64,000 bases of DNA from an uncultured Erysipelotrichaceae bacterium. Its GTDB lineage: Bacteria > Bacillota_I > Bacilli_A > RF39 > UBA660. The notes under the pieces were generated by a model. The model searched no databases and had not been told where the DNA came from. It worked only from the letters and a program-made list of their open reading frames with translations. Shown one piece after another: positions 2,716 through 60,602 of the stretch. The DNA is taken from positions 34,727 to 98,726 of the forward strand of contig CADBCT010000001.1 of the NCBI GenBank assembly GCA_902793315.1. Direction: 5' to 3'. How positions within the stretch are numbered: the first letter of the stretch is position 1; each line of letters opens with the position of its first letter. A program made the position numbers and the translations under genes.

Positions 2716-2730
2716 AATTCCTCCAAATAA

Positions 2731-2808
2731 AAAGTGCACATGAAAGGTGAATTTTAAGGCTGCTATCTTCCGATTCTGACCTGGTTCAATTTCTTTCATT
2801 GCACGTAT
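2731..2808 (-). ncRNA. ffs: Small signal recognition particle RNA (4.5S/scRNA-type SRP RNA)
   Basis: Minus strand reads GTGCAATGAAAGAAATTGAACCAGGTCAGAATCGGAAGATAGCAGCCTTAAAATTCACCTTTCATGTGCAC. The terminal helix GTGCA(A)ATGAAAG/CTTTCAT(C)GTGCAC closes a hairpin. The ACCAGGTCAG...GGAAG..AGCAGCC core matches the conserved SRP RNA domain IV (E. coli 4.5S: ACCAGGUCAGGUCCGGAAGGAAGCAGCC). A U-tract follows. In B. subtilis scr lies next to dnaX, so the position is syntenic. Confidence 0.6.
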
Positions 2809-2890
2809 ATATTTTATTATAAAAAATAAAAAAAGTAAATATTTGTTATTATTTTTATTTTTTAAGGAATATTTTTGCTATTTTTAGTTA

Positions 2891-7519: not shown

Positions 7520-8632
7520 CTACTTTCTTTCTACAAGACCATTTTCTACTTTGTAGATAAATGCATCTTCTAAATACTTCTTGTTTATATTTTTTAAATC
7601 TGTTGTTGTGATAATACTTTGTATATCATCTTTATTAACTATTTCTAATAATTTATTTCTCTTTTTTATATCTAATTCACTAAATATATCATCTAGTAAT
7701 AAAACAGGTTCTGTTTCACATATTTCATTAAATATAGGTATTTCAGAGATTTTAAATGATAAAACAGCTAATTTTTGTTGCCCTTGAGATCCAAAATATT
7801 TCAAATCATGATTATCATACTCAAAAATAAAATCATCTCTATGAGGACCATATATAGTCATACCATAATTTAGTTCTTTAAGATAATTCTTTTTAAAAGT
7901 ATGTTTTAATTTCTTTCTAATATTCTCCGAATCATAATCAGTTATTTCAATATTAGGAACATATTTTATTTTTAAACCAGAATCTCCTGATATAAAATTA
8001 TAATATTCATCAATATTTTTATTAACTAAATCAAGGTATTCCTTTCTTTTTTGATAAATAAATACAGCTTTTTCTATTAATTTATCAGTAATAATATCAA
8101 GATAATTCTCATCAGCTATATTATTATTAAATAAAACTTTTAAATATTCGTTACGAGTTTTCAATAATTTATTATATTCATTGTAATATTTAATATATTG
8201 CTTCGATATTTGAGATAACTCTATATTTAATAAGTTTCTTCTTACGCTTGGAGATCCCTTAACTATCTCTAAGTCATCAGGTGTAAAGATTATTACATTT
8301 AAATAAGAAATATAATCCATTACTTTATTAATATTTTTCTTATTTACTTTTAATTTTTTGTTATCTTCTGTTATTTCTATTTCTAAATTAGAAATAATTT
8401 TATTTTTTTTAACAGTTCCACTAAGTTTACATTTCTTTTTATCAAACATAATAATGTTAGGATTTACCCCTATTCTATGGGATTTTGTAAGGGCTAAAAT
8501 AGTAATTCCTTCTAAAATGTTAGTCTTTCCTTGAGCATTATTCCCAACAAAAATATTCATTTTACTTCCCAAACTAATAGACATATTAGAATAATTTCTA
8601 AAATTAACTAAGTTTATTTTACTAATTTTCAT
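7520..8632 (-). CDS. recF: DNA replication and repair protein RecF
   Basis: 370 aa. N-terminal Walker A GNNAQGKTNILE, SMC-like signature, C-terminal LLLDDIFSELD Walker B. Sits between gyrB and dnaN. Confidence 0.9.
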   Translation of the reverse strand: MKISKINLVNFRNYSNMSISLGSKMNIFVGNNAQGKTNILEGITILALTKSHRIGVNPNIIMFDKKKCKLSGTVKKNKIISNLEIEITEDNKKLKVNKKNINKVMDYISYLNVIIFTPDDLEIVKGSPSVRRNLLNIELSQISKQYIKYYNEYNKLLKTRNEYLKVLFNNNIADENYLDIITDKLIEKAVFIYQKRKEYLDLVNKNIDEYYNFISGDSGLKIKYVPNIEITDYDSENIRKKLKHTFKKNYLKELNYGMTIYGPHRDDFIFEYDNHDLKYFGSQGQQKLAVLSFKISEIPIFNEICETEPVLLLDDIFSELDIKKRNKLLEIVNKDDIQSIITTTDLKNINKKYLEDAFIYKVENGLVERK

Positions 8633-8720
8633 TTATTCACCTTTAAAAGCCCCATATAATCACCTTTCCCCTAATTAAGTATTCCTATACACCTATATAC
8701 ATTATAGCACATATAGGCCT

Positions 8721-8745
8721 TAAAATCACTAAAAAAATAGTTAAA
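8721..8745. terminator. Palindromic hairpin downstream of comK
   Basis: AAAAATAGTTAAATTAACTATTTTT, near-perfect palindrome with flanking A/T runs. Confidence 0.45.
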
Positions 8746-9192
8746 TTAACTATTTTTATGGTTTCTTAAAATAATATCTAATCTGGAAGCTCTAGATAAT
8801 TGATTTTCTATCGATCTATATGAACAATTAACTATTATTTCACGATCATTATCAAAAACTATTTTAGTACTATTAAATTCCATTTTCTCAAGTTTTTTAA
8901 CTCTTTTTAAAGATATCCAAACACAATCATCAGAAGATGGTGATGTTGTTGGAAAAACAATTAAATTATCACTATCTTCAATTACTATAGGTACTTTATA
9001 TTCAGCACCTAAAATATTTTTAGCACCATTTTTTCTTCCTTCGTAGGTACTTCCAAAATACTTACAACTTTCTTCCATAATACTAAAAGTTTTTTGATTG
9101 ATAATATAACTGTCATTATCCTCATAAACCAAACTACTTTCCAGATCATTAGGTACTAAAGCTAATGTACCTTTATTAATTTCATATTTCAT
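8746..9192 (-). CDS. comK: ComK-family competence transcription factor
   Basis: From MKYEINKGTLALVPND (ATG preceded by AAGGGGGATAAT). Several blocks align to B. subtilis ComK: YEVNGATIAVLPEE/YEINKGTLALVPND, CRFFGSSYAGRKAGT/CKYFGSTYEGRKNGA, IFLFPTLSSTRPQCGWISH/LIVFPTTSPSSDDCVWISL, NSFENQVYRTAWL/RSIENQLSRASRL. Confidence 0.75.
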   Translation of the reverse strand: MKYEINKGTLALVPNDLESSLVYEDNDSYIINQKTFSIMEESCKYFGSTYEGRKNGAKNILGAEYKVPIVIEDSDNLIVFPTTSPSSDDCVWISLKRVKKLEKMEFNSTKIVFDNDREIIVNCSYRSIENQLSRASRLDIILRNHKNS

Positions 9193-9326
9193 ATTATCCC
9201 CCTTAATGAAAACAATCCTTCGTTTTCGTGCAAAATATATCATATAAATTTGTAGAAATTTGTCGAATTTTGTAGAAAATTCTTGTTTTCTATAAATATA
9301 TTACGTATTTTTTTGAGTTTTCCACA

Positions 9327-9349
9327 AAAAAAGAGGAAAAATCCTCTAA
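9327..9349 (-). terminator. Rho-independent terminator downstream of dnaN
   Basis: Minus strand AGAGGATTTTTCCTCTTTTTTTGTGG: stem AGAGGA/TCCTCT followed by T7. A DnaA-box-like TTTTCCACA (9318-9326) abuts it. Confidence 0.6.
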
Positions 9350-10477
9350 TTAATAAGTTCTAATAGGTAAAACTAATTGTGTTAATGTCTCATCATCTTC
9401 TGATTTTATTAATATTGGCTTTATTTCACCTACAAAATGTAAATCAATATTCTCTGTTTGAAAACTTTTTAATGCATCCATCATATACTTAGAACTAAAT
9501 GAAATTTTTATATTTTCTTCATTATTCTTTGAAATCATCATTTTCTCTTCAACATGCCCTATTTCCATTGAACTACTCTTTAAAGTTAGTGTATTACCTT
9601 CTATTTCTAAAGTAACAATATTTTTTTCTTTATCACTTGTTAAAATACTAACTCGATCTATCACATTATATAAATCACTTAAATTAGTACTAACAACAAG
9701 TAATGAATCATTTGGTAATAAATTAGATGTATTAGGATATGTTCCATTAATAAGTCTAGATTCAAATTTTAAATTACCAGTTTTAAATAATATTTTATTA
9801 TTAAATATATGTAATTCAACATTATCATCATCTGAATTAAGTATCTTAGTAAATTCAATCAAATTACGACTAGGTATTACAATATTATAATTTTCATCAC
9901 TACTTTTGCCTAATTTTACAACTTTTCTTGCTAATCTATAAGAATCAGTTGAATTACATTCTAAAACATTACCTACTATATTAAAGTTAATACCTGTTAA
10001 AACTGGTTTACTCTCTTCATTAGAAGAAGCAAAAGCGGTTTGATAAACAATACTTTTTAAAGTAGCAGATGATAATTCAACTTTCTTTTTACTCTCCTCT
10101 AAATTAATATTAGGATATTCACTATCACTAATACCATTTAAATTAAATTCACTGTTTTCTGTGTAAATTAATATTTTTAAATCATCAATTACTTCAATAT
10201 TAATATATTCAGCAGGTAATTTACGTACTATATCTAAAATATATCTACCTTGAATAATAATACTTCCTTCTTTTTCAATCTTAAAGTCTTCGTCATTAGT
10301 AGATTCAATAATTGATTGTATAGTAATATCATTATCACTAGCTGTTAAAGTTAATTTTTTCTTTTTTAACTCAAATTTAATTCCTGCTAATACAGGTATT
10401 AAGTTTTTAGTTGAAATAGCTTTTGATACTTTTAATAAAGAGTCTAATAATAATTCCTTTTTTATTGTAAATTTCAT
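9350..10477 (-). CDS. dnaN: DNA polymerase III beta sliding clamp
   Basis: 375 aa. MKFTIKKELLLDSLLKVSKAISTKNLIPVLAGIKFE is a typical DnaN N-terminus. Three-domain length. Position next to dnaA. Confidence 0.92.
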   Translation of the reverse strand: MKFTIKKELLLDSLLKVSKAISTKNLIPVLAGIKFELKKKKLTLTASDNDITIQSIIESTNDEDFKIEKEGSIIIQGRYILDIVRKLPAEYINIEVIDDLKILIYTENSEFNLNGISDSEYPNINLEESKKKVELSSATLKSIVYQTAFASSNEESKPVLTGINFNIVGNVLECNSTDSYRLARKVVKLGKSSDENYNIVIPSRNLIEFTKILNSDDDNVELHIFNNKILFKTGNLKFESRLINGTYPNTSNLLPNDSLLVVSTNLSDLYNVIDRVSILTSDKEKNIVTLEIEGNTLTLKSSSMEIGHVEEKMMISKNNEENIKISFSSKYMMDALKSFQTENIDLHFVGEIKPILIKSEDDETLTQLVLPIRTY

Positions 10478-10608
10478 TTTTATATTCCTTCTTTCTTAAT
10501 ATATTTCTATTATTATAGTGGAAAAAGTTAAAAACTAACAAATTCCTTGATTTTATAAAGATTTAACTTGTTTTTATTTGTGGAAAAAATAATATTTTCA
10601 ATTATTAT
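10478..10608. promoter_or_regulatory. oriC: dnaA-dnaN intergenic oriC segment (DnaA-box-like sites plus AT-rich unwinding region)
   Basis: TGTGGAAAA (10579-10587; rc TTTTCCACA, 1 mismatch to TTATCCACA) and TAGTGGAAAAA (10516-10526), surrounded by a >80% AT tract. Conserved position of incC/DUE in Firmicutes. Confidence 0.5.
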
Positions 10609-11979
10609 TTACACACCACCTATATCTTTCTTTAATTTTTCTATAATATTAGCTAAATCTTTATTTATTTTTATTTCATTTTCAATTTTTTCAACTGAAT
10701 ACATTACTGTAGTATGATCTTTACCACCAAATTCAATAGCAATCTTTGGAAATGACTCGGTAGTCATATTTCTGCAGAGATACATAGCAATTTGTCTAGG
10801 AAAAGAAATATTAGCACTTCTTTTCTTACTTCTGATATCTTCAGTTGATATTTGAAAATATTCAGAAACTATTCGTTGAATTCGTTGAATGTTATTTTTC
10901 TCCCCTATTCCTTTACTTATATTATCTTTAAGAGCCTCAATTGCTAAATCTAAAGTAATTTTTTCTCCACCCATTATTGTGGAATAAGCAACTAATCTTG
11001 TAACAGCTCCTTCTAGTTTTCTAACATCAGGTCCTATATTATTAGCCATATATTCTATTACTTCGTCTGGAATATCATCATTAAAATCATTAGCAACTAT
11101 TTTTTTCTTTAATATTTCTTTCTTTAATGCTAATTCTGGAGGATAAATATTTGCTTGTAATCCCCATGTAAATCTTGTTCTTAATCGTTCTTCCAAAATT
11201 TTCAAATCATCTGGAGATCGATCAGAAGATATAACAATTTGTTTATTATCATTATGTAAAATATTAAAGGTATGAAAAAATTCATCTTGTGATTTTGAAG
11301 CACCACCTAAGAATTGAATATCATCAATTAATAGGACATCAACATTTCTATACTTATCTTTAAAGAAATCTACATAATTGAAATTGGTTCCATCATCATC
11401 TCTTCTACTGGCTTTAACAAAATCTTGTCTAAATTGTTCACTAGTAACATATAATACACATTTATTACTATGTTCTACAACATAATTTCCTATTGCATGC
11501 ATTAAATGTGTTTTACCTAATCCACTATTACCATATAGAAATAAGGGATTATAAAGTAAACCAGGATTCTCAGCAACACTTAAAGCAGAAGCCTGAGCAA
11601 ATTTATTACTATTTCCTACAATAAAATTATCAAAAGTATAATTTTTATTTAGATTACTATTAATATTCTCAACTTTCTTAGGAGTATTTTCATATAATTC
11701 TTTTTCTTCTTCTTTATTTTTTTCATCTTCTAATTCATCGCTTAAAATAAAGACAAGTTCATAATTAGTACCGGTTAAAATATTTAAATTATTCTTTATA
11801 ATATCAGAATAATTATTAGATAAATGTTTTTTATGAATAGCCATCGGAACTATTATATAAGCTTTTTCATTATCTAATTTATATAATTTGGTATCCGAAA
11901 ACCAAGTATCATAAGAGAGAGAGGTTAGTTCTGTTTTTAAATTTTCTAATAATTTAGACCATAAAACATCTACATTCAT
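10609..11979 (-). CDS. dnaA: Chromosomal replication initiator protein DnaA
   Basis: AAA+ Walker A GNSGLGKTHL, Walker B LLIDDIQFL, C-terminal DNA-binding helix ...KDHTTVMYSVEKI. Start set at ATG (MNVDVLWSKLLENLK) preceded by GGGGAGATGG. The ORF-track start is a TTG 6 codons upstream. Confidence 0.93.
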   Translation of the reverse strand: MNVDVLWSKLLENLKTELTSLSYDTWFSDTKLYKLDNEKAYIIVPMAIHKKHLSNNYSDIIKNNLNILTGTNYELVFILSDELEDEKNKEEEKELYENTPKKVENINSNLNKNYTFDNFIVGNSNKFAQASALSVAENPGLLYNPLFLYGNSGLGKTHLMHAIGNYVVEHSNKCVLYVTSEQFRQDFVKASRRDDDGTNFNYVDFFKDKYRNVDVLLIDDIQFLGGASKSQDEFFHTFNILHNDNKQIVISSDRSPDDLKILEERLRTRFTWGLQANIYPPELALKKEILKKKIVANDFNDDIPDEVIEYMANNIGPDVRKLEGAVTRLVAYSTIMGGEKITLDLAIEALKDNISKGIGEKNNIQRIQRIVSEYFQISTEDIRSKKRSANISFPRQIAMYLCRNMTTESFPKIAIEFGGKDHTTVMYSVEKIENEIKINKDLANIIEKLKKDIGGV

Positions 11980-12063
11980 TCTACCATCTCCCCACAAGAA
12001 CCATTAACAATTTTTATTCTACATTAAATAGTTAAAAAAATAAATGATTTTTTATTAAAAAAA

Positions 12064-12197
12064 ACAATCCACAAAGAATTCCCAAAGTTATACACAACAA
12101 AGATATTTATATAATAAAGATAAAATGCTGTTTTCCACATTTTCCACAAATTTTTAATAAACAACATAAAAAAAGTTATCAACAAGGTTGTGAATAT
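12064..12197. promoter_or_regulatory. oriC: DnaA-box cluster between dnaA and rpmH (oriC upstream box region and dnaA promoter)
   Basis: ACAATCCACA (12064-12073), TTATACACA (12088-12096), TTTTCCACA x2 tandem (12131-12139, 12140-12148), TTATCAACA (12176-12184), TGTGAATAT (12189-12197). All within 1-2 mismatches of TTATCCACA or its reverse complement. Confidence 0.55.
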
Positions 12198-24821: not shown

Positions 24822-24850
24822 AAACTCGTAAAATCGAGTTTTTTTATTTG
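24822..24850. terminator. Bidirectional terminator between the abgT-like and araC-like genes
   Basis: AAACTCG-TAAAA-TCGAGTTT flanked by A/T runs on both sides. Confidence 0.6.
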
Positions 24851-25311
24851 AATATAGATAAAGATTTAACTGTAGTTTTAGGAGGAATATTAGTAAGATA
24901 TGAATCAATTTTACGCAATTTATAATCCAGTTTTGAAAGATTAGTTTGAATGGTATTTATTTTTTCATAAGAAAGAGAACTTTCAAATAACACAAATTTG
25001 TGATAATCAGTAGGTGCTACACCAATAATTTTATGAAATATCTCACAAAAGTACTCTTGAGAATAAAAACCATAATTAATAGAAATATTTAAAATAGATA
25101 TATTCTTATATTTGAATGATATTAATGAATTATAGATTCTCTTATGATTTATATAATCAATAATAGTATAGCCAATTTCTTTTTTAAACAGTCTCATAAT
25201 ATAGTCTTTATTGTAATGAAAAGTAATAGATAATTCATCTATTGATATTTTTTTATAAAGATTGTTTTCTATATAAATTAATATTTGTATGATTAAATCA
25301 TTAGAAAACAT
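24844..25311 (-). CDS. AraC-family helix-turn-helix domain protein (short, HTH domain only)
   Basis: 155 aa with an AraC-type HTH signature (ISIDELSITFHYNKDYIMRLFKKEIGYTIIDYINHKRIYNSLISFK...ISINYGFYSQEYFCEIFHKIIGVAP). Confidence 0.55.
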   Translation of the reverse strand: MFSNDLIIQILIYIENNLYKKISIDELSITFHYNKDYIMRLFKKEIGYTIIDYINHKRIYNSLISFKYKNISILNISINYGFYSQEYFCEIFHKIIGVAPTDYHKFVLFESSLSYEKINTIQTNLSKLDYKLRKIDSYLTNIPPKTTVKSLSIFK

Positions 25312-25404: not shown

Positions 25405-26760
25405 ATGAGTTATTCAGAATGGTCCACAAGAGAAGCGATGCAGAAGAAAGCAGCAGCAGTAAATCTAGATACAGGAGTAAAAAAATCTGGATTACCAGTA
25501 ATGTATGATGATAAATATCTATACATTGATACAAGTGAAGCACATAATCTATTAATTGGAAGTACAGGTAGTGGAAAGACTCAGACTGTTATCTTACCGC
25601 TTCTAAAATTAGCAATGATGGCAGAAGAATCAATAGTGATAAATGACCCTAAAGGTGAAATTTTTGGAAGAACAGCCCAAAAATTAGAAGATGAAGGTTA
25701 TAAAAACATTGTGATAGATTTTGAAGATTCACGTATGGGAAATAGTTGGAATCCACTTACTTTAGCTTATAAGCAATTTAAAGAAGGAAATTCAGATAAA
25801 GCAATAGAGTTAATTGAGGATTTAGGTTACTATTTAATTGCTGATACACATAGACAAGAAACTGATCCTTTTTGGACAAATTCAACTATTAATTATTTTA
25901 CTGGATTGGTATTATATTTATTTAGAAATGCAAAAGATGAAGAAATTAATTTAAATAGTGTTGCAAAATTAGCTAATTCATTGTTGGATAAAACTTCCAG
26001 TGAAAAGTTTTTAAAGAAATCAGAAAAGGATCCTATAATGTTCATGAAATTAGCAGGGACATTACAAGCTCCACCAGAAACTAGAGGAAGTATTATCTCA
26101 GTATTTAATCAAAAGATTGAAAGATATTTATCTAAAGAAAATTTAGCTAATATGCTTTCAACTAGTGACTTTGATTTTTCTACAGTAAGTAATGAAAAGA
26201 CAGCTATCTTTATAGTAACTGGTATTAATAGTTTTTGTCGTAATTTAATCCCATTATTTGCTAATCAAGTGATGGATGCAGTTTCACTATATGGCAATAA
26301 AGAAAAAAGATTAAATTTACTATTAGATGAGTTTGATTCGTTGATACCTATTAAAGATTTTGCATTGAAATTAGGTTATTGTAGATCAATAAATATTAGA
26401 GTTACAGTAGCTATTCAAAGCTTTGTACACTTAGCTAATATGTATTCTAAAGAGGATGTTGAAATACTAAAAATGTGTTTTGGAAATACTATTTATCTAT
26501 TATCAAATGATATTTACACATTAGAAGAAATATCTAAAAATTGTGGTACACACATAGTAGATAACAAAGAAGAACCTCTAATTTCTGTTGCTGAATTAAA
26601 AACGCTTAGTATTTTTTCAGCAATTATCTTAATGCCAAGAATGATGCCTTTTAAGACTAAGTTATTACCAGACTATGAAATAGACTGGGGTTATGAAATG
26701 AAAAAGGCAACTATTCCTAGTAGAGAAACTAATACAATAAAAATATATGAAGAAAAATAA
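25405..26760 (+). CDS. TraG/TraD/VirD4-family P-loop ATPase (type IV coupling-protein-like), orphan
   Basis: 451 aa. Walker A GSTGSGKTQ, Walker B LLLDEFDSL, and architecture of the T4SS coupling-protein (TrwB/VirD4) ATPase domain. No N-terminal TM anchor and no other conjugation genes nearby. Confidence 0.6.
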   Translation: MSYSEWSTREAMQKKAAAVNLDTGVKKSGLPVMYDDKYLYIDTSEAHNLLIGSTGSGKTQTVILPLLKLAMMAEESIVINDPKGEIFGRTAQKLEDEGYKNIVIDFEDSRMGNSWNPLTLAYKQFKEGNSDKAIELIEDLGYYLIADTHRQETDPFWTNSTINYFTGLVLYLFRNAKDEEINLNSVAKLANSLLDKTSSEKFLKKSEKDPIMFMKLAGTLQAPPETRGSIISVFNQKIERYLSKENLANMLSTSDFDFSTVSNEKTAIFIVTGINSFCRNLIPLFANQVMDAVSLYGNKEKRLNLLLDEFDSLIPIKDFALKLGYCRSINIRVTVAIQSFVHLANMYSKEDVEILKMCFGNTIYLLSNDIYTLEEISKNCGTHIVDNKEEPLISVAELKTLSIFSAIILMPRMMPFKTKLLPDYEIDWGYEMKKATIPSRETNTIKIYEEK

Positions 26761-48751: not shown

Positions 48752-49252
48752 ATGAAAAAAATAATTATTATTTCAAGTATAATTATTTCAATTTTAGTAA
48801 TTAATAAAGAAAATGAAATAATTATTCCAAAAGAAGCAATAAGATTTAGAGTAATAGCTAATAGTAATAGTGAACAAGATCAAATAATAAAAAAAGAAAT
48901 TGTAAAAAGTCTATCAAAAGAAATAATTACTCCTAATATTAAGAATATTAATGAAGAAAGAATATTTTTAAAGGAAAATTTACCAAAATTCACAAAAACT
49001 GTGAAAAAAACTCTTACCGATAATAATTATTCTAGTAAATTTGATATAAACTATGGTAAAAACTATTTTCCAGAAAAGACATATAGAAATATTACTTATC
49101 CAGAAGGCGAATATGAATCATTAGTAGTTACTATTGGTAACGGTCAAGGTAAAAACTTTTGGTGTGTGTTATTTCCTCCACTATGCTTAATTGATGAAGA
49201 TACTGAATCATATCCTTCGTTAATTAAAGAAATTATTAATAAGTATTTTTAA
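48752..49252 (+). CDS. spoIIR: Stage II sporulation protein R homologue
   Basis: AIRFRVIANSNSEQDQ (B. subtilis AIRLRILANSDSDQDQ) and TYPEGEYESLVVTIGNGQGKNFWCVLFPPLCLID (VYPAGEYEAILITLGEGDGANWWCVLFPPLCFLD). N-terminal signal peptide. Confidence 0.78.
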   Translation: MKKIIIISSIIISILVINKENEIIIPKEAIRFRVIANSNSEQDQIIKKEIVKSLSKEIITPNIKNINEERIFLKENLPKFTKTVKKTLTDNNYSSKFDINYGKNYFPEKTYRNITYPEGEYESLVVTIGNGQGKNFWCVLFPPLCLIDEDTESYPSLIKEIINKYF

Positions 49253-54695: not shown

Positions 54696-55328
54696 ATGAC
54701 CAAAGAAAGGTTAAAACTGAGATATGTTCCATTAACAATCTTTATATTAGTAATGATTCCTATTATTACACTTGTTGTATTATTTAATGCTAGCTTAAAA
54801 GAAAAAACTGATGTAGATATAAGTAAAGATAACGAGATAATAGAAAGTACTTTGCCTGTAATTAATACCACTATTAAACCAATTGTTCCTTACACTGATC
54901 AAACTGTTAAGATAGGTAAAACATATTATGATTATCTAGCTGAAGAAGCATCTCAAGAAAATGCAATTATAAAGCATGACAATACATATATCCAAAATAC
55001 TGGAATAGATTATGTAGGGAATAATATCTTTGATGTAGTAGCTATCCTTGATGGTACTGTTGAAAAAATAGTAGAGGACGATTCTACAGGTAAGACTATT
55101 GAAATAAAACACGGTGATAATAGTATTTCTATATATGGAAGCTTAAGTGAAATAATAGTTAAAAAAGGTGATACAGTAAATCAAGGGCAACAAATCGGTA
55201 AAAGTGGAACTAATGAATTAGACAAAGAAATGGGAAATCATTTACATTTTGAAGTATATAATAATGGACAAAATATGAATCCAGAAGTATATCTAAATAC
55301 TGAACAGAAGATTAAGGGAGAAGAATAA
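54696..55328 (+). CDS. M23 family metallopeptidase, membrane-anchored
   Basis: N-terminal TM. LytM-domain motifs HxxxD-like (IKHGDN) and HLHFEV. Confidence 0.65.
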   Translation: MTKERLKLRYVPLTIFILVMIPIITLVVLFNASLKEKTDVDISKDNEIIESTLPVINTTIKPIVPYTDQTVKIGKTYYDYLAEEASQENAIIKHDNTYIQNTGIDYVGNNIFDVVAILDGTVEKIVEDDSTGKTIEIKHGDNSISIYGSLSEIIVKKGDTVNQGQQIGKSGTNELDKEMGNHLHFEVYNNGQNMNPEVYLNTEQKIKGEE

Positions 55329-57605: not shown

Positions 57606-58334
57606 ATGATAGAATTTATAATATGTGAGGATGAGAAGGATTTCAGAACTAAGTATGAAAATATTTCTGAACAAGTAATGATGAATTATGATTTAGAATA
57701 TAAAATTACTAGTTTTAGTGAGTATTCTTCTAATTGGAAACAAAAGATTAATAACAATAATTTTAAAATATTTATTTTAGATTTAAAGACAAAGCAAGGG
57801 TCTGGATTAGATGCAGCTAGATATATAAGAGAAGAGCTTGATGATTGGCAATCTATGATTATAATTATTACTGCCTATCCAGAATATAAATATGAAGCTT
57901 TAGGTAAAAGATTAATGCTCGTTGATTTTGTCTATAAATTAGATGATTATGAAAATAGACTGAGAAATGCTATTAAAATAAGTTTAAAAAATTTTGATAA
58001 AAGGCCTAATAAATTGAAGTATACTTATAAAAAAGTAGTTTATAATATTGATTATCAAAAAATAATATATATTGAAAAAGAACAAGATAATAAGAGATGT
58101 ATTATAAAAACTAATGATAAGAATTATTATATTCAAGGTAATTTAAATCAAGTAGAAAAATTGTTAGACAAAAGATTCATCAAGTGTAATAGAAGTTATA
58201 TAATTAACTTAGAACAAGTGGAATCATATAACACTAAATCTAATATATTGACTTTCAAAAATGGCAAAACATTATATGCAGTATCTAGAAATAAGAAGAA
58301 GGAGATAGTTAATCATGTTAGAGGTGTTAATTAA
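57606..58334 (+). CDS. agrA: LytTR-family response regulator (AgrA-like)
   Basis: Receiver domain (IFILDLKTKQGSGLDAARYIR) plus C-terminal LytTR DNA-binding domain (YIEKEQDNKRCIIKTNDKNYYIQGNLNQVEKLLDKRFIKCNRSYIINL). Confidence 0.75.
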   Translation: MIEFIICEDEKDFRTKYENISEQVMMNYDLEYKITSFSEYSSNWKQKINNNNFKIFILDLKTKQGSGLDAARYIREELDDWQSMIIIITAYPEYKYEALGKRLMLVDFVYKLDDYENRLRNAIKISLKNFDKRPNKLKYTYKKVVYNIDYQKIIYIEKEQDNKRCIIKTNDKNYYIQGNLNQVEKLLDKRFIKCNRSYIINLEQVESYNTKSNILTFKNGKTLYAVSRNKKKEIVNHVRGVN

Positions 58335-59616
58335 TTTTATCTGTGCATTTATCCTTGTTTTAGCAGGCTTCTATATTATTAAAAAAATTACTGGTAGTAA
58401 TCAGAAAATATCACTTAGAGTGATAGGTTATTTGTTACTTAACAGCAGTTTAATTGCTATAGTTCATTACTTAAATTATAGTTTTATATCACTAATGTTA
58501 AATTTTATTATTAATACTTTAACTTATAAAGGTATTTTTAAAGTTTCCCTTGAAGAAGCAGTAGTTCAAACAGGTATTTTAACTATGTATTTATTGATAT
58601 TTGATACTATATTTGTAATTATTCAAATAAATGCAATACCACTAAAAGTAGTTCAAAATAATATATTAGTTTATTTAATTAGTAATATATTAGTAGTTCT
58701 CATGACTTATTTATCTATTCAAATTAGTTTCATTTATAAAAGATTGAGAAAATTTTATCAAGTATTAGTAAATAAAGATTTAAGATTAAATATGATTTTC
58801 ATTATTTTGATAATTATAACTGCCTGTGGAATTCTTTATAGTTTTATAATAAATAATAAGTTTAATCTTAGGTTTTATACAGATTTAACAGTAATAGCAT
58901 CATTATTAATTATAGGAATAATATTTATTAAAAATAAGGATGTATATAATAAGTTATCCTCTGAATATGATATTTTATTATCTAGTGTTCAAAATTTTGA
59001 AGATTGGATAGAAAAAGAACAATATTTAAGACATGAATATAAAAATCAATTAGCTATTTTATATGGAATATCTTCTGAAAAAGAAGTAAAGAATAAAATA
59101 CAAGAAATAATAGATCAGAATCTTGATATTAATAATGATGTTGTTAAACAATTAAGTATGTTACCTAGAGGAGATTTAAAAGGTATTTTACATTATAAAA
59201 CTATTGTAGCCCAAAAACATAAAATAAAACTTACAGTTGATGTTAGTATTCAAGATAATGGTATTATTAATAAACTTGATAAAAAAGAAATAAATACTTT
59301 AGCTAAGCTAATCGGTATTTTTTATGATAATGCAATTGAAGCAGCTGCTGAAAGTAAAAAAAGAATTGTTCTACTAGAAATATATGAATTGAAAGGTAGA
59401 GTTAATTTTGTAATATCAAATACTTTCAAAAAGAATAGTATTATTAATAGTCAACATGAAAGGGGAATATCTTCTAAAGGTAAAGGTAGAGGAAATGGTT
59501 TATATTTTGCTAATAAAATATTGAATAAAAACAAGTGGATTATTGAAAAAAATGAAATTATTGATAATTACTATGTTGAGACTATTACAGTAATCAAAAA
59601 CACTTCTAAAAAATAG
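58315..59616 (+). CDS. agrC: AgrC-like sensor histidine kinase (HPK10 family)
   Basis: N-terminal 6-7 TM sensor module. His-box region (EYKNQLAILYG), GHKL ATPase with G-box GRGNGL. Overlaps the agrA-like gene by 20 nt. Confidence 0.75.
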   Translation: MLEVLINFICAFILVLAGFYIIKKITGSNQKISLRVIGYLLLNSSLIAIVHYLNYSFISLMLNFIINTLTYKGIFKVSLEEAVVQTGILTMYLLIFDTIFVIIQINAIPLKVVQNNILVYLISNILVVLMTYLSIQISFIYKRLRKFYQVLVNKDLRLNMIFIILIIITACGILYSFIINNKFNLRFYTDLTVIASLLIIGIIFIKNKDVYNKLSSEYDILLSSVQNFEDWIEKEQYLRHEYKNQLAILYGISSEKEVKNKIQEIIDQNLDINNDVVKQLSMLPRGDLKGILHYKTIVAQKHKIKLTVDVSIQDNGIINKLDKKEINTLAKLIGIFYDNAIEAAAESKKRIVLLEIYELKGRVNFVISNTFKKNSIINSQHERGISSKGKGRGNGLYFANKILNKNKWIIEKNEIIDNYYVETITVIKNTSKK

Positions 59617-59627: not shown

Positions 59628-59750
59628 TTAATCTAGATTTAAACTAGTAGCATTTGGTTCATCAATAACAAGCCAAATACATCCCATGCTAGCAGCTCCA
59701 GTAGCAAGTACTGCTACAGCAGCTAATAATTTAGCTAATCTCTTTTTCAT
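59628..59750 (-). CDS. agrD: AgrD-like autoinducing peptide precursor (40 aa), not in ORF track
   Basis: Minus-strand ORF MKKRLAKLLAAVAVLATGAASMGCIWLVIDEPNATSLNLD. Strong RBS AAAGGAGGT 6 nt upstream. Amphipathic leader, Cys followed by 4 residues (CIWLV, thiolactone ring size), then an acidic DEP recognition tail as in AgrD. Lies 41 nt downstream of agrB on the same strand. Confidence 0.7.
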   Translation of the reverse strand: MKKRLAKLLAAVAVLATGAASMGCIWLVIDEPNATSLNLD

Positions 59751-59791: not shown

Positions 59792-60376
59792 TTAGCTGTT
59801 TTTATAATTGTTATATTTAACACCCAGTAATTTATAACACAATGGATTAATTACAATACTTTCAATTATTAAAGAACTTAGTATAGGAACTCTTAACTTA
59901 TCGAAATATATAGCTATTACAAAGAAGAGAACTCCTAAAATTAATGAACATATCTTTCTAATAATACGTTTATTTTTGTTTGTTAAAGGTCTTTTTTCAG
60001 TATCACTAGGTGCAAATAATAGGAATGAGGTAATTGCAAAAATAGAAATAATAATTATTAAAGGTAATTTAATAGTAATTTTTAATAATAAAAAAGGTAA
60101 AATATTAAATTGTAAGATGGATGTTATTAAACATTGCCAACTATTTTTAGCATGTACTCCAAAAGCAAAGAATCTCAAAAAATTAAAGAATAAAAGAGTA
60201 ATAATAACTGTATCTAAGTATTTAAAAATAATGCCTATTAATAAAATAATAAGAACTTTAGAAATAGTTAAATAAATTCCTTCTAAGCCATATCTAATTT
60301 TTAATAGTTCATATTCTGTATAATGAGTATTCTTTTTAATAAAGTTATATGTAGTATTAAGAATAAAATTATTCAT
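59792..60376 (-). CDS. agrB: AgrB-like accessory gene regulator protein B (membrane endopeptidase)
   Basis: 194 aa, about 6 TM. Aligns to S. aureus AgrB: LKIRYGLEG/LQVRLGMQV, FAFGVHAKNSWQCLITSIL/HAHGAHAPSSFWCYVESII (catalytic His and Cys), FAPSDTEKRPL/YAPAATKKKPI. Confidence 0.82.
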   Translation of the reverse strand: MNNFILNTTYNFIKKNTHYTEYELLKIRYGLEGIYLTISKVLIILLIGIIFKYLDTVIITLLFFNFLRFFAFGVHAKNSWQCLITSILQFNILPFLLLKITIKLPLIIIISIFAITSFLLFAPSDTEKRPLTNKNKRIIRKICSLILGVLFFVIAIYFDKLRVPILSSLIIESIVINPLCYKLLGVKYNNYKNS

Positions 60377-60602
60377 ACTATCACCAATTAAAATTATAAG
60401 TAAATAATTAATGACAAATAGAAAAATCTATAAATGGTAAAAAAATAATAAATATATCGATTTTTGTCGAAAAAAATCACAAAAAAAGCAAAAAACAATA
60501 CAAAATATACACTTTTAGGAAATTTTTAATATGAATAGTATTGTTTGTTAAAATGAAATAGCCAAAAATAATAATTGGCGGAAGAGAGGTGTAGCATTAG
60601 TG

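Follow-up and report, generated by a model that had tools for sequence, protein, structure and literature searches.

A ComK-family regulator gene conserved beside the replication origin in RF39 bacteria, and phased Spo0A-type boxes upstream of comK and agrBD

Results

The comK region of the window and the protein it encodes

The window, by which we mean the whole 64-kb stretch of DNA analyzed, is placed in or near the RF39 lineage, which to our knowledge is known from metagenomic assemblies only; these bacteria are abundant in gut and rumen and have small genomes. The minus strand of the window carries the gene string dnaA (10609-11997), dnaN (9350-10477), comK, recF (7520-8632), gyrB and gyrA. 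The first-pass annotation had placed comK within the dnaA-dnaN-recF-gyrB string, and this location is correct: comK (8746-9192, minus strand) is flanked by dnaN and recF, and no S4/yaaA-like ORF is present between these two genes in the window. The features of the region, in the direction of transcription, are the following:

9332-9347, minus strand: intrinsic terminator of dnaN, stem AGAGGATTTTTCCTCT followed by a T-run (sequence reading)
9273-9292, minus strand: upstream hairpin TAGAAAA-CAAGAA-TTTTCTA (read from the spacers)
9234-9242, minus strand: extended -10 promoter element TGATATATT (TGnTAnnnT at the same place in most loci)
9208-9227, minus strand: stem-loop of the 5'-UTR, GAAAACGA-AGGA-TTGTTTTC, beginning approximately at the predicted transcript start
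9197-9204, minus strand: Shine-Dalgarno sequence AAGGGGGA (sequence reading; AGGGGGA kept in nearly all loci)
8746-9192, minus strand: comK, coding for a short ComK-family protein of 148 aa (full-length match to PF06338)
8731-8757, minus strand: comK terminator, made up of an AT-rich hairpin AAAAATAGTT..AACTATTTTT with the stop codon inside it and a T-run after it (sequence reading)
8701-8709, minus strand: recF promoter TGCTATAAT, an extended -10 (sequence reading)
8679-8690, minus strand: recF leader hairpin GTATAGGAATAC (hairpin motif in 50 of 56 loci)
8629-8655, minus strand: upstream ORF of eight codons (M-x-L-F/L-...), whose stop overlaps the recF ATG

The open reading frame called mechanically spans 8746-9243 (minus strand). 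We took the ATG at 9192-9190, downstream of AAGGGGGA, as the comK start; close ComK homologues are all 146-150 aa long, and an identical ComK is encoded on a 1.07-Mb contig. The upstream ATG at 9243, which would give a 165-aa ORF, was rejected because it falls within the -10 element.

The product had been assigned to the ComK family, and blocks shared with Bacillus subtilis ComK had been pointed out. Both statements are confirmed. A search with the Pfam family model PF06338 gave an end-to-end match of 153.2 bits (E 5.6e-45, cutoff 22.3), covering ComK residues 2-144 and model positions 3-149 of 152, and the conserved blocks are those of B. subtilis ComK, with which the window protein shares 34% identity along 139 aa (E 9e-34). 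An NCBIfam search with the 148-aa protein returned no matching model. B. subtilis ComK has 192 residues, and the window ComK ends at the equivalent of about residue 160, so that the C-terminal 32 residues are absent. The whole Pfam ComK domain is retained, and 33 columns are invariant across the two clades described below.

An AF2 model of the protein (pLDDT 84, pTM 0.80) predicts a beta-rich fold that also has a long helix at the C-terminus. The PDB entries that match it best are DNA-binding domains of the LytTR type (3d6w, ComE 4cbv and AgrA 4xqn), with probabilities of 0.89-1.00 yet weak E-values of 0.01-0.2, and a sequence-based search detected no solved structure for any ComK relative. 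A 2026 preprint had already placed a ComK model alongside AgrA-LytTR and RemA (PMC13232269).

Two other regions of the window are mentioned for completeness. The gene at 25405-26760 (plus strand), which adjoins ychF, encodes a coupling protein of the VirD4/TraG type (T4SS-DNA_transf, E 1e-46), with an AraC-type regulator gene (24844-25311, minus strand) upstream of it on the opposite strand; no further conjugation genes were seen near it. A small SRP RNA (RF00169, 54.8 bits) at 2721-2813 (minus strand) overlaps the 5' end of the mechanically called 177-aa tadA ORF, whose true start is placed further downstream, since L070 has a called product of 149 aa.

The position of comK beside the origin is conserved

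A scan with one genome per species yielded 57 related loci (L001-L057), with ComK identities of 42-84%. The order dnaA-dnaN-comK-recF-gyrB-gyrA was found in every one of the 57 loci long enough to show it. ComK proteins of about 150 aa also form a second large clade, which is deeper; the two loci fetched from it (L072 and L073) both keep this order, which brings the total sampled to 60 genome loci of uncultured gut Bacilli, including the window. One of the related loci, L032, is from Candidatus Faecimonas intestinavium (GTDB genus CAG-877, order RF39; PMC8035907), and its DnaN is 82% identical to that of the window, which puts the organism of the window in RF39 or close to it. The gene had been described as inserted into the origin string; the arrangement is instead conserved across all the relatives sampled.

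ComK diverges at about the same rate as its neighbours RecF and DnaN; in L052, for example, the identities to the window proteins are 42% (ComK), 38% (RecF) and 49% (DnaN). The gene is intact in the 57 related loci and in L072 and L073, and it is therefore under selection. Judged by its sequence, the comK gene of the window is a genuine, selectively maintained gene for a ComK-family transcription factor, in a short form that consists of the Pfam ComK domain alone.

The genes around the origin form one of the most stable gene strings in bacteria, and the simplest reading of the conserved synteny is therefore that comK persists at this position by inertia.

comK has its own promoter, leader and terminator

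The 57 dnaN-comK spacers share a common plan: the dnaN terminator, an AT-rich motif plus hairpin, one to five short boxes (see below), the extended -10 element, the stem-loop, AGGGGGA and the ATG. The region upstream of comK had been proposed to contain the dnaN terminator, which is indeed found there as AGAGGATTTTTCCTCT plus a T-run (9347-9332). The conserved AT-rich motif TTG.TAATAATATAAATAG (9291-9306, minus strand) leads into the upstream hairpin, which covaries; here ATAATATAAATAG was found, at one mismatch or fewer, in 14 of 55 spacers versus 0.3 in shuffled controls. In many relatives this hairpin and its T-run are the dnaN terminator, and the clade of the window has a second terminator upstream of the hairpin. 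In L030 (5276-6000), the dnaN-comK spacer is enlarged to 731 nt by an extra segment, which apparently carries an oppositely oriented ORF; next to comK, this locus retains both the boxes and the -10 element.

The stem-loop of the 5'-UTR was found in 34 of 58 loci, using a pattern that tolerates mismatches and does not force pairing. Compensatory changes turn A-T into G-C at the second and fifth pairs and C-G into T-A at the sixth, there are no disruptive pairs, and the loop varies from 3 to 11 nt between loci. These features agree better with an RNA element than with a protein operator, and this conserved 5'-terminal hairpin of the comK mRNA is probably an mRNA stabiliser. No Rfam family matched the comK 5'-UTR or the recF leader.

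Downstream of comK, most loci have a hairpin and T-run at the position of the comK terminator, and the stems covary. In 49 of 56 loci (comK-recF spacers), the short upstream ORF ends within an ATGA or TTGA in which its stop codon and the start codon of recF overlap, which suggests translational coupling. Because comK has its own terminator and recF restarts from its own promoter, comK is insulated from both dnaN and recF. As predicted from these elements, it is a self-contained transcription unit with a promoter, a 5'-UTR hairpin, a strong ribosome-binding site and a terminator.

DnaA boxes in the dnaN-comK spacer do not exceed the background

Besides the promoter, the spacer of the window contains a motif resembling the DnaA boxes of the nearby origin:

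9318-9326, plus strand: single DnaA-box-like 9-mer TTTTCCACA, identical in sequence to three oriC boxes (at 10579, 12131 and 12140)
10579-10587 and 12088-12184, no strand assigned: DnaA-box clusters of oriC flanking dnaA (box search; listed span 10579-12148)

The first-pass annotation had drawn attention to this 9-mer, which is present, and had suggested that competence regulation may be coupled to DnaA occupancy or origin activity. According to this idea, DnaA bound to TTTTCCACA, just past the dnaN terminator, would modulate comK and tie competence to occupancy by the initiator. In its favour, TTTTCCACA is the main oriC box variant of the lineage, accounting for 164 of the 285 boxes in the two oriC spacers, and five of the seven spacers that bear a box have it at the position seen in the window (the window itself, L001, L004, L009 and L011). 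However, the DnaA boxes of the dnaN-comK spacers (at most one mismatch) amount to 0.77 per kb (7 of 56 loci) versus a coding background of 0.94 per kb; in the two oriC intergenic regions the density reaches 10.2 per kb (ahead of dnaA) and 13.9 per kb (in the dnaA-dnaN spacer). The box is thus not conserved, and it is absent from the deeper clade. In the window it is a lone box, located about 85 bp upstream of the -10 element and overlapping in part the T-run of the terminator. These data lend no support to the proposed coupling, and we regard control of comK by DnaA as highly improbable. What is left of a coupling to the origin is a possible effect of gene dosage, which we infer from the position of comK.

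Phased 7-bp boxes in the comK promoter

The repeated motifs that had been noticed near comK are present as three copies with 10-bp spacing across 9246-9285:

9251-9257, minus strand: box 1, TTCTACA (reverse complement TGTAGAA), about -30 to -24 (sequence reading)
9261-9267, minus strand: box 2, TTCGACA (reverse complement TGTCGAA, a perfect 0A box), about -40 to -34 (kept in nearly all loci of both clades)
9271-9277, minus strand: box 3, TTCTACA, about -50 to -44 (sequence reading)

The period is exactly 10 bp, made up of the 7-bp box and a 3-bp spacer. The pattern of two such boxes was matched three times in the 64-kb window versus 0.21 matches expected; chance is therefore not the explanation of the repeats. 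In the other loci, promoters have one to five boxes, with the variants TTCGACA, TTCTACA, TTTGACA and TTAGACA. The perfect heptamer occurs in 24 of the 55 dnaN-comK spacers of normal length, and its density is 3.46 per kb in the spacer versus 0.05 per kb elsewhere in the loci (about 70-fold), with a strand bias of 26:3. The most conserved word of the spacers is TTCGACAAA: when a single mismatch was tolerated, 42 of 55 spacers had it versus 0.9 in shuffled controls, although such controls overstate the significance because the related loci share ancestry.

The boxes are in a constant register with the promoter: between the end of the last box and the TG of the extended -10 element there are always 8 nt. 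In the deeper clade there is a single box, which ends 18 nt before the TG, that is, one helical turn further. The nearly universal box at -40 to -34, with the sequence TTCGACA or TTTGACA, is separated from the -10 hexamer by 21 nt, which is too far for a normal -35 element.

The same boxes precede an agrBD locus

The only other place in the window with the two-box pattern is upstream of agrB, in a locus with the following features:

57606-58334, plus strand: LytTR response regulator (PF04397, PF00072)
58315-59616, plus strand: AgrC-like histidine kinase (weak AgrC match, NF046015, 40.9 bits)
59628-59750, minus strand: AgrD-like precursor of 40 aa (…GCIWLVIDEP…), small ORF MKKRLAKLLAAVAVLATGAASMGCIWLVIDEPNATSLNLD (ORF listing)
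59792-60376, minus strand: agrB (PF04647 AgrB, 111 bits)
60455-60471, minus strand: tandem boxes TTCGACAAAAATCGATA upstream of agrB, the same boxes as at comK

The genes for the response regulator and the AgrC-like kinase are convergent with agrB and the AgrD-like ORF. Perfect copies of TGTCGAA number three in the 64-kb window, of which two are those in the comK and agrB promoters. These boxes are also found in four related agrB loci from metagenomes, and the five agrB upstream regions all contain TTTTCGACA without any change. In about 700 kb of fetched sequence, tandem boxes were found in comK promoters, in agrB promoters and at two sites upstream of dnaA, and nowhere else. From this near confinement to the two kinds of promoter, comK and agrBD very likely share one regulator.

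The two sites upstream of dnaA are tandem 0A-type boxes in the oriC region of two relatives (L047:2927 and L072:3126), and they recall the binding of Spo0A at the B. subtilis origin; in the fetched loci, 0A boxes are not enriched at oriC. A gene for a cold-shock protein is divergent from agrB in the window and likewise in the related loci L058-L061. An AAAGTGT repeat upstream of the response regulator gene was considered and rejected as a signal, since it belongs to a terminator hairpin and is not enriched. The more distant agrB loci L063-L069 have TTTTGTCA[CT]-N12-TTTTGTCAT upstream, a direct repeat with the 21-bp period typical of LytTR regulator sites, which differs from the RF39 boxes in sequence and orientation.

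ComK and the LytTR regulator as candidate binders of the boxes

Two regulators encoded in the window itself were weighed as binders. The first is ComK. AT-boxes of the B. subtilis type (AAAA-N5-TTTT) had been brought up in connection with auto-activation, but none are properly spaced at comK in the window, and the repeats found there match the 0A box instead. A search upstream of comK for K-box pairs (two AAAA-N5-TTTT motifs spaced by 8, 18 or 31 bp) gave one spacer of 55 with such a pair and no pair in the window. The phased boxes might still be this lineage's own ComK sites, through which ComK would activate its own gene and also turn on agrBD. In favour of this idea, ComK of B. subtilis activates its own promoter (PMC3297582), and the modelled ComK fold resembles LytTR domains, which bind direct repeats. 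Besides the lack of K-box pairs of the B. subtilis type, the fact that the heptamer and the 3-bp spacer exactly match the consensus of another regulator speaks against it, and so does the single box of the deeper clade. The geometry does not help either: LytTR sites, such as those of AgrA and ComE, typically consist of 9-bp repeats about 21 bp apart, unlike the boxes described here. We consider auto-activation through these boxes unlikely.

The second candidate is the Agr-type LytTR response regulator (57606-58334), which could bind the boxes of both agrBD and comK, as ComE does in pneumococcus. The boxes are indeed common to the two promoters, the window has a locus with agrBD, regulator and kinase, and boxes 1 and 3 of the comK promoter are identical and 20 bp apart. 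The boxes recur every 10 bp, which puts alternate boxes of a three-box promoter 20 bp apart; the agrB promoters have a pair of neighbouring boxes, and those of the deeper clade a single box. This arrangement does not readily fit LytTR sites of 9 bp + 12 bp. Moreover, the distant agrB loci do have a 21-bp repeat (TTTTGTCA-N12-TTTTGTCA), with another sequence and orientation, and in the window there are no boxes ahead of the regulator-kinase operon. Binding by this regulator is, in our view, improbable. As far as the sequences tell, a period of 10 bp and promoters with a single box make binding by either ComK or the LytTR regulator less likely.

Discussion

Spo0A as the leading candidate

What is new here is that the dnaN-comK-recF arrangement is conserved in all the relatives sampled, and that phased Spo0A-type boxes are common to comK and agrBD. 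The reverse complement of the box, TGTCGAA, is the core of the 0A box, with a perfect copy at 9261-9267. This core, in which Spo0A contacts G2, C4 and G5, is conserved from Bacillus to Clostridioides difficile (PMC3485338), Spo0A sites in which two boxes are separated by 3 bp have been documented (PMC2731898), and Spo0A~P binds directly to activating and repressing sites in the B. subtilis comK promoter, PcomK (PMC3297582).

Whether RF39 bacteria sporulate is disputed in the literature. RF39 has been predicted to be capable of forming spores, and spo0A, treated there as an absolute requirement, is not among the genes listed as lacking in this order (PMC10868615); another study, which retained exclusively spo0A-positive MAGs, names RF39 among the orders represented (PMC11536998). 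On the contrary side, RF39 MAGs have been scored at 0% sporulation probability (PMC12536801). Two genes of the window have matches to sporulation proteins:

48752-49252, plus strand: SpoIIR (PF09551, 131 bits; TIGR02837, 137 bits, just below the cutoff of 151.9)
54696-55328, plus strand: SpoIIQ-like M23 protein (best match NF053738, 147 bits, below the cutoff of 250)

Given the TGTCGAA consensus, the 3-bp spacing of dimer sites and the sporulation genes kept in the lineage, the best candidate for binding the boxes would be Spo0A~P. In the circuit that we propose, a response regulator would bind the one to five phased 7-bp boxes (TTCGACA with 3-bp spacers), whose centres are near -27, -37 and -47. 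A starvation or cell-density signal would raise Spo0A~P, which would in turn induce ComK and the autoinducing peptide, and ComK would then switch on a competence (K-state) regulon. Several points count against this reading: no spo0A gene was seen in the part of this genome covered (the window and about 7 kb of housekeeping genes reached through gyrA), RF39 MAGs have the 0% sporulation score cited above, the window has no late competence gene, the protein is without the C-terminal 32 residues of B. subtilis ComK, and the flanking boxes of the window are TGTAGAA, in which the contact base C4 is altered, and a change of C4 lowered affinity about 10-fold in assays with C. difficile Spo0A (PMC3485338). 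Weighing these points, we give about an even chance to the proposal that this ComK is a competence regulator under Spo0A-type control.

The locus thereby offers a testable regulatory hypothesis, with Spo0A-type boxes upstream of comK and agrBD, and the compact RF39 comK promoter could be transferred to B. subtilis. Should Spo0A prove to drive comK in this lineage, the connection of Spo0A with ComK would go back further, and would be more direct, than one would gather from the circuit described in B. subtilis.

The role of ComK in RF39

A role in DNA uptake is predicted for the RF39 ComK from its family membership. None of the late competence genes comG, comE, comF, dprA and ssbB was found in the 64-kb window (Pfam and NCBIfam searches of about 50 window ORFs), and a literature search on competence or DNA uptake in RF39 found nothing relevant. 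The protein might be a repurposed regulator with a ComK fold that serves sporulation, growth arrest or replication and repair, hence its place beside dnaN and recF. The missing C-terminal 32 residues, the lack of competence genes in the window and the strict synteny with replication and repair genes would all agree with such a change of role. However, the origin string is highly conserved across bacteria, so that the position can persist by inertia; comK is transcriptionally insulated on both sides; and the whole Pfam ComK domain is kept, including the 33 invariant residues. We find repurposing doubtful.

A bolder variant would make the RF39 ComK an origin-embedded developmental switch, a minimal LytTR-like regulator, fixed beside oriC and recF and driven by Spo0A~P and the Agr autoinducer, which in these bacteria of very small genome size would link quorum and starvation signalling and origin copy number to a state of growth arrest or DNA repair and might play no part in DNA uptake. 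It would turn the strict synteny into a matter of function, not of inertia; we consider it a long shot. Whatever the role of the protein, the order dnaN-comK-recF is a simple genomic marker of the RF39 lineage.

Comparison with known systems

The competence master regulator ComK of B. subtilis belongs to the same PF06338 family as the window protein and has the same conserved blocks, with 34% identity. It differs in having 192 residues versus 148, the window protein being without the C-terminal 32 residues, and in the location of its gene, which lies elsewhere on the chromosome and not in the dnaN-recF slot. That slot, which we take to be occupied by the S4-like gene yaaA in B. subtilis and staphylococci, is identical in chromosomal terms; yaaA encodes an unrelated protein, whereas in the window the slot holds comK, followed by recF with a conserved leader and an upstream ORF of eight codons.

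At the level of the promoter, in spoIIG-type promoters activated by Spo0A, 0A boxes overlap a -35-like element whose distance to the -10 is about 22 bp. The nearly universal comK box, 21 nt upstream of the -10 hexamer, resembles this arrangement, and by analogy the box at -40 may act as in such activated promoters. Unlike them, the RF39 comK promoter has the TG of an extended -10, and the clade of the window has an extra box in the spacer. In the B. subtilis PcomK, too, boxes of the 0A type surround the core promoter and extend upstream of it, namely the Spo0A~P sites A1-A3, R1 and R2 (PMC3297582). By analogy with R1 and R2, the extra spacer box could be repressing. In contrast to PcomK, the lineage of the window has a regular 10-bp array of predicted sites, with up to five near-consensus copies; this array also precedes agrBD, and ComK boxes are absent from the RF39 promoter.

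Finally, Streptococcus pneumoniae encodes a master regulator of competence near oriC as well. The closeness of comCDE to oriC has led to a model of gene dosage under replication stress, which is itself disputed (PMC8394987), and a comparable benefit might apply to the RF39 comK. The pneumococcal regulator is of another family, and the comK gene of the window lies within the dnaA-gyrA core string itself.
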